NCBI GenBank assembly: GCA_002498605.1 | Contig: DAHY01000009.1 | Location: forward strand, 22,971 to 86,970 | Reading direction: 5' to 3' | Length of the DNA: 64,000 nt | Source of the DNA: Methanomassiliicoccaceae archaeon UBA404 | GTDB taxonomy: Archaea; Thermoplasmatota; Thermoplasmata; Methanomassiliicoccales; Methanomethylophilaceae | Shown: piece by piece, positions 3,377-40,762 of the stretch | Layout of the letters: each line of letters opens with the position of its first letter | Position numbering within the stretch: position 1 is the first letter of the stretch | Made by a program: the position numbers and the translations under genes | Notes under the pieces: generated by a model | The model's database searches: none | Seen by the model: the letters and a program-made list of their open reading frames with translations, nothing else | What the model was told of the DNA's origin: nothing

Positions 3377-4686
3377 CGGCACCGGTAATATACCCTTTGT
3401 ATTATACGGCGTACGTGAACGATTTGGAAACAAAAGAGGATTTTCTCGATTGGTTATACGGATTGACTTCCCAGGGCATAAAACTGGGTTTGGACAATAT
3501 CACGGAACTCCTCGAAAGAATGGGCAATCCCCATAAATCTTTCAAAAGCGTGCATGTGGGCGGAACCGACGGCAAAGGATCCGTCTGTGCCATGGTTTCT
3601 TCGGTGCTGAGGGAAAGCGGAATCAGTACGGGATTGTTCGTTTCCCCGCATATAACGGAATTCAACGAACGGATATCCGTTGACGGAATACAGATTACCG
3701 ATGACGAACTTGCCGAGATGGCGGCCCTTGTCGTTTCGCACGTCCGGGAGATGTCGGACAACGGGAAATACTGCACATTCTTCGAAGTCACCACCGCAAT
3801 AGCTTTTCTTTATTTCAAGAAAAAAGGGGTTGAATACGCCGTTGTCGAAGTCGGAATGGGAGGCAGAGCGGATTCCACCAATGTTCTGATTCCCGAAGTA
3901 TGCGTAATAGGAAACGTAAGTTTGGAACACACCGCATTTCTGGGAAACACCCTGGAAAAGATAGCTTTTGAAAAAGCCGGCATCATAAAACCCGGAGTGC
4001 CCTGCGTGACGATGAACGGCGATGAAGCATTTGCGGTAATCAGAAAAACCGCCGAAGAAAGAAAGTCGCCTCTGATACGCGTGAACAAAGCGGATATAAA
4101 CATTATGAGTCTGGATGAAAAAGGTACTTTTTTTCAATATAAGGGGGAAGACTATCACGTATCCGTTCCCGGAAGATATCAGGCCAAAAATGCATCTTTG
4201 GCCATCGAAGCCGTGTCGATGTTAAGCATATACGGACAAAAATGCAGATGCAACATCCGCAAAGGACTGGAAAAGGTATTTTGGCCCTGCAGACTCCAAA
4301 GAATACCCGGCACGCCGTTTATAATGGACGTAACCCACACCGTGGAAGGATCCGCGCAGATAATATCGGACATCCGGGAAATATACGGCAGTGTGAACGT
4401 TGTGTTCGGAGTCCTCAAAGATAAAAACATAAGGGGCATAGCAGAGAACATTTCCAAAATAGCAAACCGTATAATAGTAACCCGGCCGGAAACCGAAAGA
4501 GCTTCCCCGTCCGAAGAAACAGCCAGGATTTTTTCGGAATTCTTTGAAGACATCATTGTAACCGATAACGTTGAAGAAGCCATGAACAAATCATCGGAAA
4601 TTTTCGGCGATGGATTGATATTGGTTACGGGGTCTTTCTATACAACCGGGGAGGCGATGAAATGGATAAAAAAGACATATCTCTGA
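3373..4686 (+). CDS. folC: folylpolyglutamate synthase / dihydrofolate synthase family (Mur-ligase fold)
   Basis: HVGGTDGKGS P-loop and SPHITEFNERI, typical of FolC. The start is uncertain: TTG 3373 overlapping the upstream stop, or GTG 3415. Confidence 0.85.
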   Translation: MTAPVIYPLYYTAYVNDLETKEDFLDWLYGLTSQGIKLGLDNITELLERMGNPHKSFKSVHVGGTDGKGSVCAMVSSVLRESGISTGLFVSPHITEFNERISVDGIQITDDELAEMAALVVSHVREMSDNGKYCTFFEVTTAIAFLYFKKKGVEYAVVEVGMGGRADSTNVLIPEVCVIGNVSLEHTAFLGNTLEKIAFEKAGIIKPGVPCVTMNGDEAFAVIRKTAEERKSPLIRVNKADINIMSLDEKGTFFQYKGEDYHVSVPGRYQAKNASLAIEAVSMLSIYGQKCRCNIRKGLEKVFWPCRLQRIPGTPFIMDVTHTVEGSAQIISDIREIYGSVNVVFGVLKDKNIRGIAENISKIANRIIVTRPETERASPSEETARIFSEFFEDIIVTDNVEEAMNKSSEIFGDGLILVTGSFYTTGEAMKWIKKTYL

Positions 4687-5735: not shown

Positions 5736-6815
5736 ATGTACAAATACAGAGACGAAGCAACCGCCAAGAGAATACTCAAAGGAATCAAAGACCGCGGCGT
5801 CGAGTGTAACCTGATGCACATATGCGGAACTCATCAGGACACCATCGTGCGTTTCGGACTCGAGGAAATGCTGGCCGATGCGGGCATTAAGATTCATCAG
5901 GGGCCCGGATGCCCTGTTTGTGTGACGACCGCCAAAGAAATATCGGAAATCATAACCCTTGCCAAAGGAGGCGTTACCGTAACGGCTTTCGGAGACATGA
6001 TGAGGGTTCCGACGCCGATGGGTTCTTTGTTTGACGCAAAAACCGACGGAGCCGACGTCCGTATTGTGTATTCCATAGAAGACGCTGTTACAATGTCCCG
6101 AGATTTGGATAACGATGTGGTGTTTGTCGGAGTGGGTTTTGAAACCACCGCGCCCTCCACCTGTGTTCCGTTGAACAGAGACGATGTACCGGAAAACTTT
6201 TCGGTTTACAGCTGTCACAGAATTTGCCCGCCGATAATACAGGCATTGTTGGATATGGGAGAAAACAAGATTGACGGTTTCATAATGCCGGGACACGTAG
6301 CCGTGATAACCGGAACCGAGATTTTCAAGCCTTTTGCAGAGAAATACCACCTTCCTCAGGTTGTGGCAGGTTTCGAACCGCTGGATGTGCTGATGTCCTG
6401 CTATATGCTCGCCAAACAGATATCCGAGGGAAGAGCCGAGGTGGAAAACGAATATACCCGTCTTGTCAGGGACAAGGGAAACCTGAAAGCCCTGGAACTT
6501 ATGGACAGAACCTTCGAACCCATAGATTATGCCTGGAGAGGATTCCCGGTCATCGAAAAGAGCAGACTGGCGTTTAAACCGGAATATGCCGAGCACGATG
6601 CAACCAAAGTTCACGAAGATCTTATTGCATCCGCCCCCGAGGTCGAAGAAGAAGCCAGGGGTTGCAGATGCGGCGAAGTGCTCAGGGGACTGATCAAGTC
6701 CCACGAATGTCCGATGTTCGGTAAACCCTGCAAACCCAGTTCTCCTTCGGGACCATGTATGGTTTCTGCCGAAGGCAGTTGCAATATAGCTTACAGATAC
6801 TCGGATAAGAGGTGA
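5736..6815 (+). CDS. hypD: hydrogenase maturation protein HypD
   Basis: Motifs CGTHQD, GPGCPVCV and PGHV. It starts 4 nt after the hypA stop. Confidence 0.9.
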   Translation: MYKYRDEATAKRILKGIKDRGVECNLMHICGTHQDTIVRFGLEEMLADAGIKIHQGPGCPVCVTTAKEISEIITLAKGGVTVTAFGDMMRVPTPMGSLFDAKTDGADVRIVYSIEDAVTMSRDLDNDVVFVGVGFETTAPSTCVPLNRDDVPENFSVYSCHRICPPIIQALLDMGENKIDGFIMPGHVAVITGTEIFKPFAEKYHLPQVVAGFEPLDVLMSCYMLAKQISEGRAEVENEYTRLVRDKGNLKALELMDRTFEPIDYAWRGFPVIEKSRLAFKPEYAEHDATKVHEDLIASAPEVEEEARGCRCGEVLRGLIKSHECPMFGKPCKPSSPSGPCMVSAEGSCNIAYRYSDKR

Positions 6816-7409
6816 ATGGAAGTGGAACAAGCAAAACCAAAAATCGTACCTATTGCCGCCCCCCGTACCGGTAAAAAGAACATACTGATTGTAACAAACG
6901 ATTCTGAAGTGACCATTTCAAACAAATTGGAAGCGGCCGGCGATCTTTTCGGCGGCAGAGTCACCGAAATACGCGAGTTCGTAAAAAGTCTTGAAGAGGA
7001 ATTCGGCGAAGAAGGAAGCAATACCATGAACATATCTTTCGGGCTGATAACCACGTTCTTCGGATTCGTACCCAGCAATTATTCGATATACAGATACAAG
7101 TATGCCATGAGCAACAAAGAAGAGTATCTGCTTACCCAGAAGGAAAGAGACTATGCCGGCAGACTGGAATACGTTTCAAGAGGATTTGACAAAGTCATAA
7201 TCTGTGTTCCCAAAGAGATGTTCAGAATCCTGGTTGACAACGATGCTCTTCATAACGGTAAAATCATTGCCGTTACTTCGAAAGACTTCAAAGGACTCTG
7301 CGAAGAAAGAGAATGGATATACCTTGAAAGGAAAGGTGCCAGACTGGGAAAAAAGAACGCAGAGAAAGTAAGGAATTATCTGAGAGAACTCAACGCCGGT
7401 ACTTCCTGA
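6816..7409 (+). CDS. hypothetical protein directly abutting hypD
   Basis: The 197-aa ORF starts on the nucleotide after the hypD stop (TGAATG). No recognisable motif. Confidence 0.55.
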   Translation: MEVEQAKPKIVPIAAPRTGKKNILIVTNDSEVTISNKLEAAGDLFGGRVTEIREFVKSLEEEFGEEGSNTMNISFGLITTFFGFVPSNYSIYRYKYAMSNKEEYLLTQKERDYAGRLEYVSRGFDKVIICVPKEMFRILVDNDALHNGKIIAVTSKDFKGLCEEREWIYLERKGARLGKKNAEKVRNYLRELNAGTS

Positions 7410-34930: not shown

Positions 34931-35004
34931 GGGCCCATAGCTTAGCTTGGTGGAGCGTCCGGCTGATAACCGGAAGGTCATGTGTTCGAATCACATTGGG
35001 CCCA
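34931..35004 (+). tRNA. tRNA-Ile (anticodon GAU)
   Basis: GGGCCCATAGCTTAGCTTGGTGGAGCGTCCGGCTGATAACCGGAAGGTCATGTGTTCGAATCACATTGGGCCCA, with anticodon loop CTGATAA. A TATA-like GTTTATATC lies about 30 nt upstream. Confidence 0.9.
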
Positions 35005-35041
35005 CTCATTTTCATCTGGCATACCTTATTTTTTAGACCAA

Positions 35042-35539
35042 TCACTTCTTACAGACTTCATTTCCGGCCAAAGGCCTGTGATATTTTCCCGTGACGGATT
35101 CAGTCTCTATTCTGTATACCGCCGTAGGAGGTATTTTCGCATCATCCATGCCGGTCTTTCCGGGCATGAGCTTGTCTACGACTTTCAGAAGCATTTTCTT
35201 CTTTGTTTCCTGATCGTCCACCATCTTGACCTTTCCGCGTATGATTACGGATTCGTAAACTGTGGTTGTGTCGCATGCCGCCACACCGCAGTTTTCATAA
35301 CCTGTTCTTTCCCAAACCGTAAAACAGACCCGCGGATCCCTTTTGAGATTTTCGATTTTTTCGCCCAACCTGCGTCCGTGTATGTAGACGATTCCGTCCA
35401 TCATCACATAGTTGACGGGTGCGGCGTACGGATAACCGTCTTCACCGTTAGTGGATATAACTCCGACATCGATTCTGTTCAAAAATTCTGAAATTTCTTT
35501 TTCTTTCATGCTGTTTTTCTTCATATTGGGTTGCATCAT
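35042..35539 (-). CDS. pyridoxamine 5'-phosphate oxidase-family FMN-binding protein (NimA-like)
   Basis: Split-barrel pattern: GVISTNGEDGYPYAAPVNYVMMDGIVYIHG and RVCFTV. Confidence 0.8.
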   Translation of the reverse strand: MMQPNMKKNSMKEKEISEFLNRIDVGVISTNGEDGYPYAAPVNYVMMDGIVYIHGRRLGEKIENLKRDPRVCFTVWERTGYENCGVAACDTTTVYESVIIRGKVKMVDDQETKKKMLLKVVDKLMPGKTGMDDAKIPPTAVYRIETESVTGKYHRPLAGNEVCKK

Positions 35540-35803
35540 AAATCACCTCTCGGTACTTTAAACGTAAAAGGGTCTGGTGTAATAAATAGATTTACGATTT
35601 TGTGTTTTTTGAAGCGATATTGATGAGATATTTATCGGTTTATAGATCAAAACAAGCAATAATCAATATTTGTTCCAATCATGGGATTAAATGTTGTATC
35701 TGTTGTTAGAAAGTATGATTGAATCCAATATTGAAACAAAAAAGCTTGTCATTGGATGCAACTACAAAAGTTATTTATACTAATAATACGTAATATCTAT
35801 TAC

Positions 35804-36050
35804 ACGCGCAGAGATTGCAAAGTTGAAGGATGTGGCTGTTCTTCGGAAAAGTCAACCCGGAAACTTTATGGCCCTGCAACGACAAGGACGAAAAGAATGA
35901 TATTCTTGAGTCATCGTGAAGGATTCCCTACTGGAATCATACGAAGAAACGGAGTGCCTCGGGCGTTTCTAAGGTGAAACGCTTTCGGGGAAAATTATAC
36001 TCGACCTTCGTAAGGTCTGCGCGTGTGATGCGGTTGTTTTGTTTATTTTT
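35804..36050 (+). ncRNA. structured ncRNA candidate, unit A of a tandem paralogous pair
   Basis: TTGGATGCAACTA box at 35753 and TTTATA at ~35775. The 5' CACGCGCAGAG (35804-35814) pairs with TCTGCGCGTG (36017-36026). A T-rich tract lies at 36035-36052. Confidence 0.45.
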
Positions 36051-36285
36051 GTAATACTGATTATTCTGTTCAAAATCTAATTCAATGTCAATCGTTTTTG
36101 AGCATGCTCAGAAAGTATTCATCTCTTGTTTATTATCTGCGTTTAATGACTTTATATTTTTGAGATTCTGATTTCTGAAAAGATCTGATTTATCCTATCC
36201 GTATTGTGGGCGCATCCGGTTTTCAAAATACTGTTGGATGCAACTAAGAAAGATACTTATATTGTGTATCTCGTACTAACTTGTG

Positions 36286-36530
36286 CACGCGCAGAGATCG
36301 CAATAAGCAAGTAGGATTGAGCCCGGTTCTGTGCGGAATCTTTGGCTCAAAAATCTGAATGTTGCGAACCCTGTTTAGACAATCGACGACAGAATTGGAA
36401 CGGTCGAACGGAATTGAAACGAGATTTCCCACTGGAATCACGCGATGATTCATGCCCCTCGAACGTTCCTGGAAGAACGGATCGGGGGAGTAAGTTCTGA
36501 GTCATCGTGGCACTCTGCGCGTGCAGTGAG
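36286..36530 (+). ncRNA. structured ncRNA candidate, unit B of a tandem paralogous pair
   Basis: TTGGATGCAACTA box at 36234 and TTATAT at ~36257. The 5' CACGCGCAGAG (36286-36296) pairs perfectly with CTCTGCGCGTG (36513-36523). Confidence 0.45.
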
Positions 36531-36646
36531 CCTTACGTTCAGACCTGTCATTCAGTTCTTGTATATAGTATGATTCATAAAAAGTCGGCTTCAGACCGCA
36601 AGAAATGAAAATATTGTAAAAAGTTTAAATTTATACTATAACGGCC

Positions 36647-38425
36647 TCAAACGTTTTCTCTCCAACCCTCTGTTGCGTAATTATCAAGATAATGACTGTG
36701 CGTTAACGGCACCCAGACGGCAACGCTAAGGTCTATATGGCCATATGCCAAACCGGCATACATCGGCCCCACATCACTTTCTTTTAAATTTACCGTGTAC
36801 CCCAATTCTTCCAACAGGTGCATTAACACAGTAGAAGATCCGACGGCGCAGGCCCAATTTACCAATCCGATATCGATGTGACCTCGATTGTTTTTATATT
36901 CAAGATCTCCCAGCCATCGATTCTTGACGGATTCGTTTTTGTCAAGCCACATTTCCGTGGCCCGCTGGACACTTACATCCTCGTCTTCAATGAATGCCAG
37001 CAGATCGTTCAATTCATCGATGGAATATGTATATCTCGATAATAAATCCGCAAGATCCTTATCCGATTCCAGTAGTCCGTTTCTTGTCCAGGATTGAATG
37101 GATTCGGCATCTCCGTAAACACCTAAGTCATCATCCAGGCAGATCATGTCGTATTTTCCTATTGCCCAATGAGGATCCCATAAAGTAACAACGATACAAT
37201 CTTTATTTTTGTATGCGGCATCGAGAGTGGAAAGCATACCAGCTTCCGAACTTGATTGAAGCTTATAATTCAGATCGTAGTATTCTATGGCCGTACCGGT
37301 TATCTCCATGATGCCGGCTCCGGCGTCAATGCCTATGATGGTACCGCCTAACTTATCGTTGTGAGCATTGAGATCCGATATTCCGGTTATTTTCAGTTGG
37401 TTAAAAGTATATTGAGTAATGTACAAACCCATCCCGGCTTCTTTATCGATGACGTTGCCTGCATAGGTTATCGGTTCGGACTCATCACTTTCCAAAAAGA
37501 ATGCACCGGCGCCGACTACAAGCAACATCGCAATTGCAACGGCACCGACTTTCAGAGTTCGGTTTCCGTTCTTGGTTTTTCTTTTCTCGGAACTGAAAGC
37601 CTTCGGTTCGGATTTTGTGAAAGACTGTGTCAATCTGTCTAATGTTACTGCAATCAATACAATGGACAAACCCGCTTCGAATCCTATACCGACATCGATT
37701 CTGCTCAATGCATAAACTATGTCTCCTCCGAGGCCGCCTCCGCCGATCATTGCGGCTATGACCACCATTGACAGCGACAGCATAATGCACTGGTTAATTC
37801 CGGTCATTATCGAAGGCATAGCAATAGGAAGTTGAATTTTGGTCAATTTATGCCATGTTGTGGAACCGAATGCATCTGCAACCTCGTTCATTTCTTCGGG
37901 AACCTGTCTTATGCCAAGATTCGTTAAACGGACAACCGGAGGCATCGCGAATATTACTGTTGCAATAACTCCGGGTACGATTCCCAGTCCAAAGAATATC
38001 ACTGCCGGAATCAAATAGACAAAAGCCGGCATTGTCTGCATAAAGTCCATCAGAGCTTTGACGAAAGAATTGGATTTTTCGCTTCCCGAAGCCCAAATAC
38101 CCAAAGGTATGGCAAGGACAACCGCCACTATCGTGGAAACGATGACCATGTTGAGTGTGATCATCGAACTTTCCCAGTAACCCATGTAATAAATAAGATA
38201 AAACGAAGCTCCGATAAATAACGGCATCACTAAACGTTTTGTTATCAAAACCGAGATGAATATCAGAATTATGATAAACACCAAAGGATCCGGATAATTG
38301 AGGATATTCCCGATAATCCGAAGAAAGCCGTCTAAAATATTGCTCAGAAGGTTTAACAGGCCTCCGAGATAAGTTTCAATCCAATCCACTGCGAATTCTG
38401 CCGCTTTTCCTATTACGGAAGTCAT
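36647..38425 (-). CDS. opuABC: glycine betaine/osmolyte ABC transporter, fused permease and substrate-binding domain (OpuABC-type)
   Basis: The N-terminal half is a TM permease with an ABC EAA-like loop. The C-terminal half is a periplasmic-binding-protein-like domain (WDPHWA, GLVNWAC). Confidence 0.8.
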   Translation of the reverse strand: MTSVIGKAAEFAVDWIETYLGGLLNLLSNILDGFLRIIGNILNYPDPLVFIIILIFISVLITKRLVMPLFIGASFYLIYYMGYWESSMITLNMVIVSTIVAVVLAIPLGIWASGSEKSNSFVKALMDFMQTMPAFVYLIPAVIFFGLGIVPGVIATVIFAMPPVVRLTNLGIRQVPEEMNEVADAFGSTTWHKLTKIQLPIAMPSIMTGINQCIMLSLSMVVIAAMIGGGGLGGDIVYALSRIDVGIGFEAGLSIVLIAVTLDRLTQSFTKSEPKAFSSEKRKTKNGNRTLKVGAVAIAMLLVVGAGAFFLESDESEPITYAGNVIDKEAGMGLYITQYTFNQLKITGISDLNAHNDKLGGTIIGIDAGAGIMEITGTAIEYYDLNYKLQSSSEAGMLSTLDAAYKNKDCIVVTLWDPHWAIGKYDMICLDDDLGVYGDAESIQSWTRNGLLESDKDLADLLSRYTYSIDELNDLLAFIEDEDVSVQRATEMWLDKNESVKNRWLGDLEYKNNRGHIDIGLVNWACAVGSSTVLMHLLEELGYTVNLKESDVGPMYAGLAYGHIDLSVAVWVPLTHSHYLDNYATEGWRENV

Positions 38426-39816: not shown

Positions 39817-40095
39817 TATTTGTCATCTCCGAAATTCGAACAATGTTCGGTACCGATTTCTTAAGCGCATACGCTGAAGAAATCCAACAATGTTAGTCGC
39901 AGGATCAACCCACGGATTGAATTCCATGGGGATTTCTTAGCGTATGAGCGGACGGGCACCCGTATTGTGCGGGATGCGGAGCGTCCTATTTTCTGATCGG
40001 CACGAATCTGCTCCGAACTCAGGACGCAAACAGATACAGAATACCTGTTTTCGTCAAGGCGTGCTTTGCCACACTCAGCATCATATATAAATTAT
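39817..40095 (-). promoter_or_regulatory. promoter plus long structured 5' leader of the opuA operon
   Basis: A minus-strand TATA (ATTTATATAT) lies at ~40084-40092. A 17/18-nt inverted repeat spans 39868-39885 / 39930-39946. Two AACAATGTT palindromes lie at 39839 and 39886. Confidence 0.4.
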
Positions 40096-40253
40096 AGGGT
40101 TTTTTGGTATTTTCGCCGATATTCCGGCTATCCAGTTAAAACAACCGACTTATCGTTATGTGTATATTCAATCGTGATTTGATTTTTGTAAATGTATAAA
40201 ATCCTTATTTTCTCGCATTAATTTTTAATTGCGTTAAACGTATTAACAGACGT

Positions 40254-40323: not shown

Positions 40324-40493
40324 TTGAATTCATAAAATGTCTTGATTCAATGTCGAATATACTGTCAAATGTACGATTATGAAAATCAACTTAATTCGCG
40401 TATATTTTACGTTAAAAGCAGTGAATGAGTAAATTTAATACGAAAATCGTAGAATAGTTGAGTTTATATACAATGAACACGTTAGTATGTTCT

Positions 40494-40696
40494 GAGGTGA
40501 GACCCAATTTCAAAACGCAAAGTAACTAAGATCTGCGGCGAGGACATGAACGGAGTAACGTATCCCTTGGTAGAGAAATGGCCGGTTGGTACCTCTCGAT
40601 GGGATTGATGCTCACATCGTGTCTGTAAGACTCGACTGATGACCGCGACAAACCCCTGCCGCGAGGCAGGGCACTTACCTCCATGGGCTTTTTTCT
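40494..40696 (+). ncRNA. structured RNA candidate (stand-alone sRNA or cis-leader of the QueG-like gene)
   Basis: TATA TTTATATA at 40463-40470. A terminal helix forms between GAGGTGAG (40494-40501) and CTTACCTC (40674-40681). A GNRA hairpin CCCTGCC-GCGA-GGCAGGG lies at 40654-40671, and an oligo-T tract at 40688-40696. Confidence 0.4.
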
Positions 40697-40762
40697 GCAT
40701 ATTGCTTTTTCTGTATGTTCAATCGTAACGATTCAATATAACCGTAACAATCTTTATTTGCT

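Follow-up and report, generated by a model that had tools for sequence, protein, structure and literature searches.

Two tandem genes of a candidate structured RNA family beside opuA in Methanomethylophilaceae

The gap between the PNPOx-like gene and opuABC

We analyzed a stretch of 64,000 nucleotides from Methanomassiliicoccaceae archaeon UBA404, the whole of which is called the window here. In the window, a gap without a credible open reading frame (ORF) lies between a PNPOx-like gene (35042-35539, minus strand) and the end of opuABC (36647-38425, minus strand), a gene of the glycine-betaine ABC transporter opuA. The gap contains two tandem paralogous units, A (35803-36025) and B (36286-36523), both on the plus strand. 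A first-pass annotation of this DNA had proposed that they are paralogous structured RNAs, each equipped with a promoter. The proposal held, since orthologues with the same promoter and fold were found elsewhere and their helices covary. A and B are very probably paralogous genes of a genuine, so far undescribed family of structured noncoding RNA (ncRNA) of approximately 218-238 nt.

Each unit is preceded by the 13-mer TTGGATGCAACTA (35752-35764 for A and 36234-36246 for B; core TGGATGCAACT), and then by a TATA-like element (35771-35779 and 36255-36262). In A, an A-rich stretch resembling the B recognition element (BRE) and the TATA box together span 35765-35781 (CAAAAG TTATTTATA C), with the TATA centre approximately 26 nt before 35803; in B, the BRE-like and TATA-like element (AGAAAGATACTTATAT) spans 36247-36262. 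The units begin with the 11-mer CACGCGCAGAG (35803-35813 and 36286-36296), and its complement closes them at 36015-36025, with one mismatch that forms a G.U pair, and at 36513-36523. With at most one mismatch, the 11-mer or its complement matched four times in the 64 kb against 0.44 expected, and none of 100 shuffles reached four. The hairpin GATTCC..GGAATC (35922-35938 and 36423-36439) and the 12-mer TGAGTCATCGTG (35907-35918 and 36498-36509) are also found in both units, and A is followed by an oligo-T tract (36034-36051), likely an archaeal terminator.

All these elements had been listed before, with coordinates that were correct for B but one too high throughout A; the CACGCGATGATTCA stretch was likewise placed one too high, and lies at 36439-36452 instead of 36440-36453. 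The 12-mer had been taken for a shared internal element of the two units. It falls on the 3' side of helix P3 in A and in the 3' strand of helix P5 in B (helices described below), and is not homologous between them. The minimum free energy (MFE) was -77.7 kcal/mol for A (z = -3.6 against dinucleotide shuffles) and -100.2 kcal/mol for B (z = -5.8), and the predicted fold of each unit was multi-branched and closed by a terminal helix.

Searching the 64-kb window with Rfam 15 at the gathering threshold returned three tRNAs only. When the gap and the orthologous locus of a distant lineage (L069) were searched at E up to 10, chance matches to microRNAs and snoRNAs were obtained, which were far below gathering and outside the units, so that the earlier statement that the units match no known family stands. 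Canonical signal recognition particle (SRP) RNA and RNase P RNA have been reported for Methanomassiliicoccales (PMC4153887), so the units are not disguised versions of either. Full-text literature searches with the terminal helix sequence, for ncRNAs of Methanomassiliicoccales and for surveys of archaeal structured RNAs found no description of this RNA.

Orthologues, promoter and fold

By the source names of homologues of its neighbouring proteins, the window belongs to Methanomethylophilaceae. Relatives of the locus were reached by two routes. Through the PNPOx-like gene we found a sister lineage (L050) with approximately 93% coding nucleotide identity and 98% PNPOx identity, the only one among the homologues of this gene that retained the gap, which was kept whole; PNPOx homologues at 82% identity or less stood in other contexts, and the RNA was absent there. 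Through OpuA synteny we found three distant lineages (L069/L070, L071 and L074-L076), in which OpuA is approximately 68% identical. Metagenome contigs of the same species were 100% identical across the gap and thus uninformative, and L063 is an identical copy of the window. The sample comprises five lineages, with seven full-length distinct sequences and two partial ones.

The distant lineages share the gene order opuAA-opuABC ... tRNA-Ile(GAU)-160aa-PF01877-CNNM, without the PNPOx gene. One RNA copy is present in each, between tRNA-Ile and the opuABC stop codon and on the tRNA strand. The tRNA-Ile(GAU) of the window (34931-35005, plus strand) is the conserved upstream same-strand neighbour, and in the relatives the RNA gene comes directly after it. 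The distant orthologues (C, D and E) start with CACGCGCAGAGGUCGCAG, end with GGCUCUGCGCGUG, are 218-219 nt long, and have the same promoter as the window units. A covariance model (R1) built solely from these three orthologues, with the window units left out, matched B with 69.6 bits (E = 1.8e-17) and A with 44.5 bits (E = 1.7e-10). In L050, the copy of A scored 42.4 bits and the copy of B 21.1 bits. Whether or not filters were applied, R1 found nothing beyond A and B in the window and no further copies in the other Methanomethylophilaceae contigs fetched.

Other searches pointed to a narrow distribution. In a lineage with a PF01877 protein at 60% identity, tRNA-Ile and the other neighbours were kept, opuA and the RNA were absent, and an HTH_10 gene stood in their place. 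In an OpuA lineage at 55% identity (L072/L073), opuA was located elsewhere and the RNA was absent. A search of 185,579 species representatives with the 18-mer CACGCGCAGAGATYGCAA gave 31 matches, approximately the number expected by chance, all of them in one Woesearchaeote or in unrelated bacteria; the pattern was too narrow, for the orthologues read ...GAGGTCGCAG. A degenerate pattern based on helix P4, which proved too specific, retrieved only L063 and chance matches from metagenome contigs. In viral contigs, the P4 pattern and a P1...P1 pattern retrieved only L052 and L083, chance matches in GC-rich coding DNA, and R1 found nothing in L083. Neither unit had a blastn match in the phage and plasmid collections. 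On the loci and contigs searched, the RNA family is thus narrow, found in a subclade of Methanomethylophilaceae, and so far always adjoins opuA. The 18-mer occurs twice in the window, yet the search did not retrieve the source region, which is either absent from or masked in the species-representative collection.

Upstream of every copy we observed the block (T/A)TGGATGCAACT-N2-RAAAGTTATTTATAC-N8-CGTAAT-N8-CACGCG, which can be aligned from approximately -51 to +1 in all five lineages; further upstream there was no similarity between lineages. The TGGATGCAACT box was exclusive to the RNA genes among the 83 loci fetched. The TATA element ends approximately 23 nt before CACGCG. An archaeal TATA box is centred approximately 26 nt upstream of the transcription start, so transcription is predicted to start no more than 1-2 nt from the first base of the terminal helix. 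As read from these alignments, each unit has its own archaeal promoter, consisting of the family-specific TGGATGCAACT box followed by BRE and TATA elements. Strong T-runs follow the terminal helix in A and C, and they are present after the L050 copy of A. In the alignment of the family, 53 cells were G.U, and pairing cells amounted to 92.2% on the plus strand against 84.0% on the opposite strand; MFE z-scores failed to discriminate the strand for C, D and E. On the promoter and the G.U counts, plus is evidently the transcribed strand.

The ORFs in the gap followed a different pattern. The 73-aa ORF at 35756-35977 (plus strand), which begins in the promoter box, is intact in L050 and absent from B, C, D and E, and every nucleotide difference between the window and L050 within it is nonsynonymous (4 of 73 residues differ). 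Minus-strand ORFs, such as that at 36244-36453, have no fixed start or stop, range from 34 to 69 aa, and do not occur in A. The first-pass annotation had described both named ORFs as not conserved between the units, which proved right. Among A, B, C, D, E and the L050 copies, no ORF was found that kept its position and frame and changed mostly at synonymous sites.

The architecture is common to all members: P1 closes a five-way junction that carries P2, P3, P4 and P5. P1 is an 11-bp helix that joins the 5' and 3' ends of the RNA. In A (223 nt), its strands are 35803-35813 and 36015-36025 (UCUGCGCGUG), with a wobble pair G35813.U36015, and the terminal pairing can be extended to 35799-36029. 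In B (238 nt), they are 36286-36296 and 36513-36523 (CUCUGCGCGUG), extendable to 36284-36525. P2 is an irregular hairpin of 58-72 nt with an AGUA/GAA-type internal loop, which we take to resemble the loop-E/sarcin-ricin motif. In A, it spans 35814-35871 with a C(UUCG)G tetraloop at 35842-35847, and its base can be drawn in two registers; the UUGCA/UGCAA pairing suggested before is one of the two. In B, P2 (36297-36368) consists of the base UCGCAAUA/UGUUGCGA, the AGUA..GAA internal loop, and then UUGAGCC/GGCUCAA. The joining segment J2/3 starts with CCCU and leads to P3, which has an outer and an inner helix; the two occupy 35872-35921 in A (ACGA..GAC..GUC..UCGU) and 36369-36422 in B, where J2/3 reads CCCUG.

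P4 is a 6-bp hairpin, GAUUCC/GGAAUC, with a stem that is invariant across family members and a CNACU loop except in the L050 copy of B (UGA). It reads GAUUCC-CUACU-GGAAUC in A (35922-35938) and GAUUUCC-CACU-GGAAUC in B (36423-36439). P5 is a hairpin of 70-76 nt. In A (35940-36012), it is built from the base UACGAAG/CUUCGUA, inner GAGU/ACUC and CCUCG/CGGGG, and apical GCGUUUC/GAAACGC; in B (36441-36509), the base is CGCGAUGAUUCA/UGAGUCAUCGUG. Short unpaired motifs were conserved in J2/3 (CCCU), in the P3 loop L3 (GGAAC) and in the apical region of P5 (UUCCU). L3 (UAGGAA in C-E, UUGGAA in B) could pair with UUCCUR in the P5 apical region. This complementarity is kept in B-E and shows no covariation, and it may represent a tertiary contact between L3 and L5.

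In the alignment of nine distinct sequences fitted to the model, standard pairs filled 92.2% of 449 cells, against 27.8-42.7% when the partners were slid by 1-3 columns. In the same alignment, two-sided changes were seen in 25 of 58 pairs, against 3-7 in the slid controls, and none of 500 shuffles reached the observed values. A structure-blind MAFFT alignment was also evaluated for the helices that it aligns: 95.3% of cells paired, against 31-49% in slid controls, and P5 showed two-sided changes in 6 of 12 pairs. In P2, P3 and P5, the sequence changes and pairing is kept. The alignments indicated that selection maintains the RNA fold.

Sequence change in the RNA is slower than in the opuA coding sequence beside it. 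Comparison of the three distant lineages gave identities of 85-90% for the RNA, 73-78% for the adjacent opuABC coding sequence, in which third codon positions are saturated (48-54%), and 68-71% for the spacer between the RNA and opuA. When the window is compared with L050, the identity is 96-97% in A, approximately 93% in coding DNA, and approximately 75% in the spacers, which also contain indels.

The ancestral state was probably a single RNA gene next to tRNA-Ile, which was duplicated in the window lineage. B adjoins opuA as the single-copy gene does, and its body is 61-64% identical to the orthologues, against 56% for A, with a higher model score. The promoter of A is the one most like those of the orthologues and has the same CGTAATATCTATTA stretch ahead of the start. 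We infer that copy A has the ancestral promoter and is more strongly conserved, and that copy B has the more ancestral body and is faster evolving. The L050 copy of B has lost the TGGATGCAACT box and part of the TATA element, both strands of the P2 base are deleted, and it is only 74% identical; P5 is still kept through compensatory and wobble changes. This paralogue appears to be decaying or being rewired in L050. The duplication offers a natural experiment: the promoter was kept by one copy and the body by the other, which in the sister lineage is already eroding. The A-B spacer also differs by a 54-nt deletion in L050 (1-1032, reverse strand, compared with window 36053-36300).

Possible action of the RNA, alternatives and the opuA side

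Our explanation as a whole is that A and B are genes of a new RNA family whose product folds into a particle and acts in trans by binding a protein or a ligand. We give it a probability of roughly 0.6, a compromise between the high confidence in the family and a confidence a little short of even odds in the action in trans. Each gene would be transcribed from its own TGGATGCAACT-box/BRE/TATA promoter, starting at the first base of the RNA. The ends of the transcript would pair in P1 and close the five-way junction, and the oligo-U after A and C would terminate archaeal RNA polymerase. The folded RNA could then serve in trans as a scaffold or binding partner of a protein or as a ligand-binding RNA, and recognition would occur through the invariant P1, P4 and junction nucleotides and not through linear antisense pairing. 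Action as a folded particle seems the likeliest mode, because the helices are maintained by compensation, two stems and the junction nucleotides are frozen, and the ends are locked in P1.

Several observations weigh against this explanation. No partner protein or ligand is indicated; a lineage without the RNA has likewise retained the nearby 'RNA_binding' gene (PF01877). The five lineages provide few independent covariation events, and the count over 58 pairs comes from the model-fitted alignment, which leans towards the model. P1 and P4 are invariant in sequence and show no covariation, so that their support consists of complementarity and wobble changes. For P1, the degenerate L050 copy of B carries three one-sided substitutions, all of which produce G.U or U.G pairs and do so only on the plus strand; because all three are wobble-compatible, they support the pairing. 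The 5' and 3' ends of the RNA are predictions from promoter geometry and T-tracts. The termination signals after B, D and E are weak, which leaves room for read-through into opuA.

Such read-through is central to the best surviving alternative, a riboswitch-like sensor acting on opuA, in which the junction would bind a ligand and P1 would decide between termination at the U-tract and antisense read-through into the 3' end of opuA. Riboswitch-controlled antisense RNAs of such a layout are known in bacteria. The RNA is convergent with opuABC in every RNA-bearing lineage, with the stop codon approximately 120-160 nt away from the single copy or from B, and the more distant lineage without opuA at the locus is also without the RNA despite having tRNA-Ile and the neighbours. 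A multi-helix junction closed by P1 is aptamer-like, and the 3' strand of P1 in A can alternatively pair with downstream sequence and form a small hairpin before the T-tract, which would fit such a switch, as would the weak terminators of B, D and E. The strong oligo-T directly after P1 in A and C argues in the opposite direction. A also lies approximately 620 nt from opuA with a second promoter in between, and the invariant P1 sequence is unusual for the P1 of a riboswitch. The opuA lineage at 55% identity (L072) has no RNA, the co-occurrence comes from few lineages in which synteny is conserved anyway, and opuA has its own terminator hairpin in the relatives. We consider a sensor of this kind unlikely.

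A second alternative is that A and B are small RNAs (sRNAs) acting in trans by base pairing, tandem paralogues like OmrA/OmrB with a conserved single-stranded seed. The identical 5' and 3' ends with divergent middles in A and B, and the short conserved unpaired motifs CCCU, GGAAC and UUCCU, would suit such sRNAs. However, the conserved ends are paired in P1 and so are not free, and selection preserves five helices and not a linear seed. When duplexes of each RNA with its own opuA leader were predicted without restriction, which is a crude test, the results were no better than for shuffles. This mode of action is quite unlikely.

We give similarly poor odds to a broader possibility, a new archaeal class of ligand-sensing (or catalytic) RNA that would control opuA from its 3' side, either via convergent or antisense transcription or in trans on the opuA leader. 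If true, such an RNA and the structured 270-nt opuA 5' leader would make up an RNA-only osmoadaptation circuit in gut methanogens.

The opuA 5' leader is of interest by itself. It extends approximately 270 nt after a TATA box and is highly conserved and structured (39817-40100 in the window, minus strand; 3320-3616 in L069, 368-664 in L071 and 2347-2643 in L074). In a long-range helix (UCUGAGUUCGG with UCGAAAUUCGGAGA), a Shine-Dalgarno-like GGAGAU just upstream of the opuAA ATG pairs with sequence approximately 200 nt upstream. Conserved inner hairpins lie between the strands of this helix, RNAalifold gave 65 pairs with five two-sided changes, and Rfam gave no match for the leader. It is a candidate translational riboswitch or leader for the archaeal glycine-betaine transporter.

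Three further features were noticed around opuA. In L069 (approximately 6800-6860) and L071 (approximately 3850-3900), a conserved hairpin (GACCUCUUGCUUCGCG...GCAAAGCAAGAAGUC) stands just past the opuABC stop and is followed by U8 on the opuA strand; it resembles an intrinsic terminator and is absent from the window lineage. In the window, a third promoter-like box, AAAAAGTTTAAATTTATACTA (36616-36640, plus strand), is close to the BRE/TATA of A (AAAAGTTATTTATACTA) and is 100% conserved in L050. It would either fire antisense into the 3' end of opuABC or belong to the opuA terminator region. Upstream of opuAA, a gene-free gap of approximately 950 nt contains a GC-rich island (gccctgcctcgcggcaggggtt...) at approximately 40480-40700 (minus strand), which overlaps a 72-aa ORF (40482-40700, minus strand).

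The remaining alternatives fared much worse. As a DNA-level element, the units would resemble a miniature inverted-repeat transposable element (MITE), with the 11-bp terminal repeats as sites of recombination or transposition. The terminal inverted repeats are indeed perfect and invariant in sequence, the interior is more variable, and there are two copies in one genome. The copies are, however, restricted to a single syntenic locus per lineage, with none elsewhere in the window or in the loci scanned with R1, and the phage, plasmid and viral collections contained no match. The repeats do not include the conserved promoter, and no target-site duplication or direct repeats flank the units. The interior changes are compensatory and use G.U pairs, which makes sense only for RNA, and the terminal repeat is equally explained as helix P1, because in the L050 copy of B its changes fit G.U pairing on one strand only. 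A mobile DNA element is thus very improbable.

The first-pass annotation had also suggested a kink-turn (k-turn) or box C/D-like module in B, which would bind L7Ae, on the basis of GAUGAU and CUGA strings that flank what proved to be the base of P5. The two strands of the P5 base form a continuous Watson-Crick helix of 12 bp, which has a single 2-nt bulge and no tandem G.A pairs. This helix covaries freely in the relatives, where GAAUCGUUGUA, GGGUCAUUGUA or AAACAUCAUA makes up the 3' strand, with no conservation of CUGA; neither box is conserved in A, C, D or E. A k-turn at this site is scarcely to be expected.

Hardly credible at all is a small protein, encoded by the 73-aa plus-strand ORF, which exists and is intact in L050 but is missing from B-E and changes an amino acid at every window-L050 difference, or by the minus-strand ORFs containing IPVGNL, of which the peptide MIPVGNLRIVQATVPIRLT recurs in C, D and E by overlap with conserved P3/P4 sequence, while these ORFs vary in start, stop and length, are absent from A, the best conserved copy, and run against the direction of the promoter. 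A protein starting at the ATG in the promoter box would have forced a reinterpretation, as had been pointed out, and it is this ORF that B-E lack. The tests thus gave no support to the MITE, small-protein and k-turn or C/D readings.

Neighbouring features and comparison with known systems

Only in the lineage of the window and L050 is tRNA-Ile separated from the RNA genes by the PNPOx-like gene. This gene is absent from the RNA locus in L069, L071 and L074, the last of which carries a PNPOx copy elsewhere (263-757), and the homologues at 82% identity or less are found in unrelated contexts, often adjoining an HxlR regulator gene. This distribution suggests a recent insertion or translocation of the gene at the tRNA-Ile/RNA site. 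A search of the window for an att-like repeat of the tRNA-Ile 3' end found none. Between the PNPOx promoter and the promoter of A lies an imperfect 20-nt inverted repeat (TCAATATTTGTTCCAATCAT / ATGATTGAATCCAATATTGA, 35663-35734). In L050, its right arm and the flanking sequence (GAAAGTATGATTGAATCCAATATT) show 100% conservation, unlike the surrounding spacer. In this divergent promoter region, the repeat may serve to bind a regulator.

To our knowledge, few archaeal structured ncRNAs are known beyond the universal ones (tRNA, rRNA, RNase P, SRP and guide sRNAs) and a handful of riboswitches. The RNA described here would add a new fold family, with a five-way junction of approximately 220 nt, a family-specific promoter element and clear covariation. 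Its hosts are host-associated methylotrophic methanogens, which are relevant to gut and rumen methane. Its conserved features, namely the invariant stems P1 and P4, the loop-E-like motif and a possible contact between L3 and L5, point to a specific partner. Since the RNA always adjoins opuA, osmolyte uptake might be under RNA-based control.

Orphan stand-alone structured ncRNAs have been found by comparative genomics before, such as the raiA motif RNA of Firmicutes and Actinobacteria and the HgcC-type archaeal ncRNAs. A and B resemble these in a length of approximately 200 nt, predicted independent transcription, a multi-helix fold backed by covariation, conserved junction and stem nucleotides, and the lack of an obvious cis-regulated gene. 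They differ in having no Rfam 15 similarity, an archaeal promoter, a very narrow range and, in the window genome, a tandem duplicate.

With the lysine riboswitch (L-box), compared for architecture only, the units share the five-way junction closed by P1, a long P2 with an AGUA/GAA loop-E-like loop, one short hairpin arm with a pentaloop, and an overall size of approximately 170-230 nt. The L-box core motifs are absent, however, P1 is invariant in sequence here, and the Rfam Lysine model gave no match at E up to 10 in the gap and the L069 locus. Unlike riboswitches in general, the units lie outside any 5' untranslated region, and the next gene is the convergent opuABC in all lineages.

Riboswitch-controlled antisense RNAs in convergent orientation are represented by the S-box downstream of the Clostridium acetobutylicum ubiG operon and by the B12 riboswitch/AspocR in Listeria. 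As in these systems, a structured RNA with its own promoter lies just downstream of, and convergent to, an operon, in this case opuA. In contrast to them, strong T-tracts follow A and C, and ligand binding and antisense read-through are only hypothetical here.

OmrA/OmrB, finally, are tandem paralogous sRNA genes of enterobacteria. The likeness consists in adjacent duplicates with near-identical 5' and 3' ends and promoters and with divergent middles. Here, however, the conserved ends pair together, and the divergent middles keep a common secondary structure by compensatory change. A and B belong to none of the families compared; they are best described as a family, and a fold, that is new within a known kind of genetic element.

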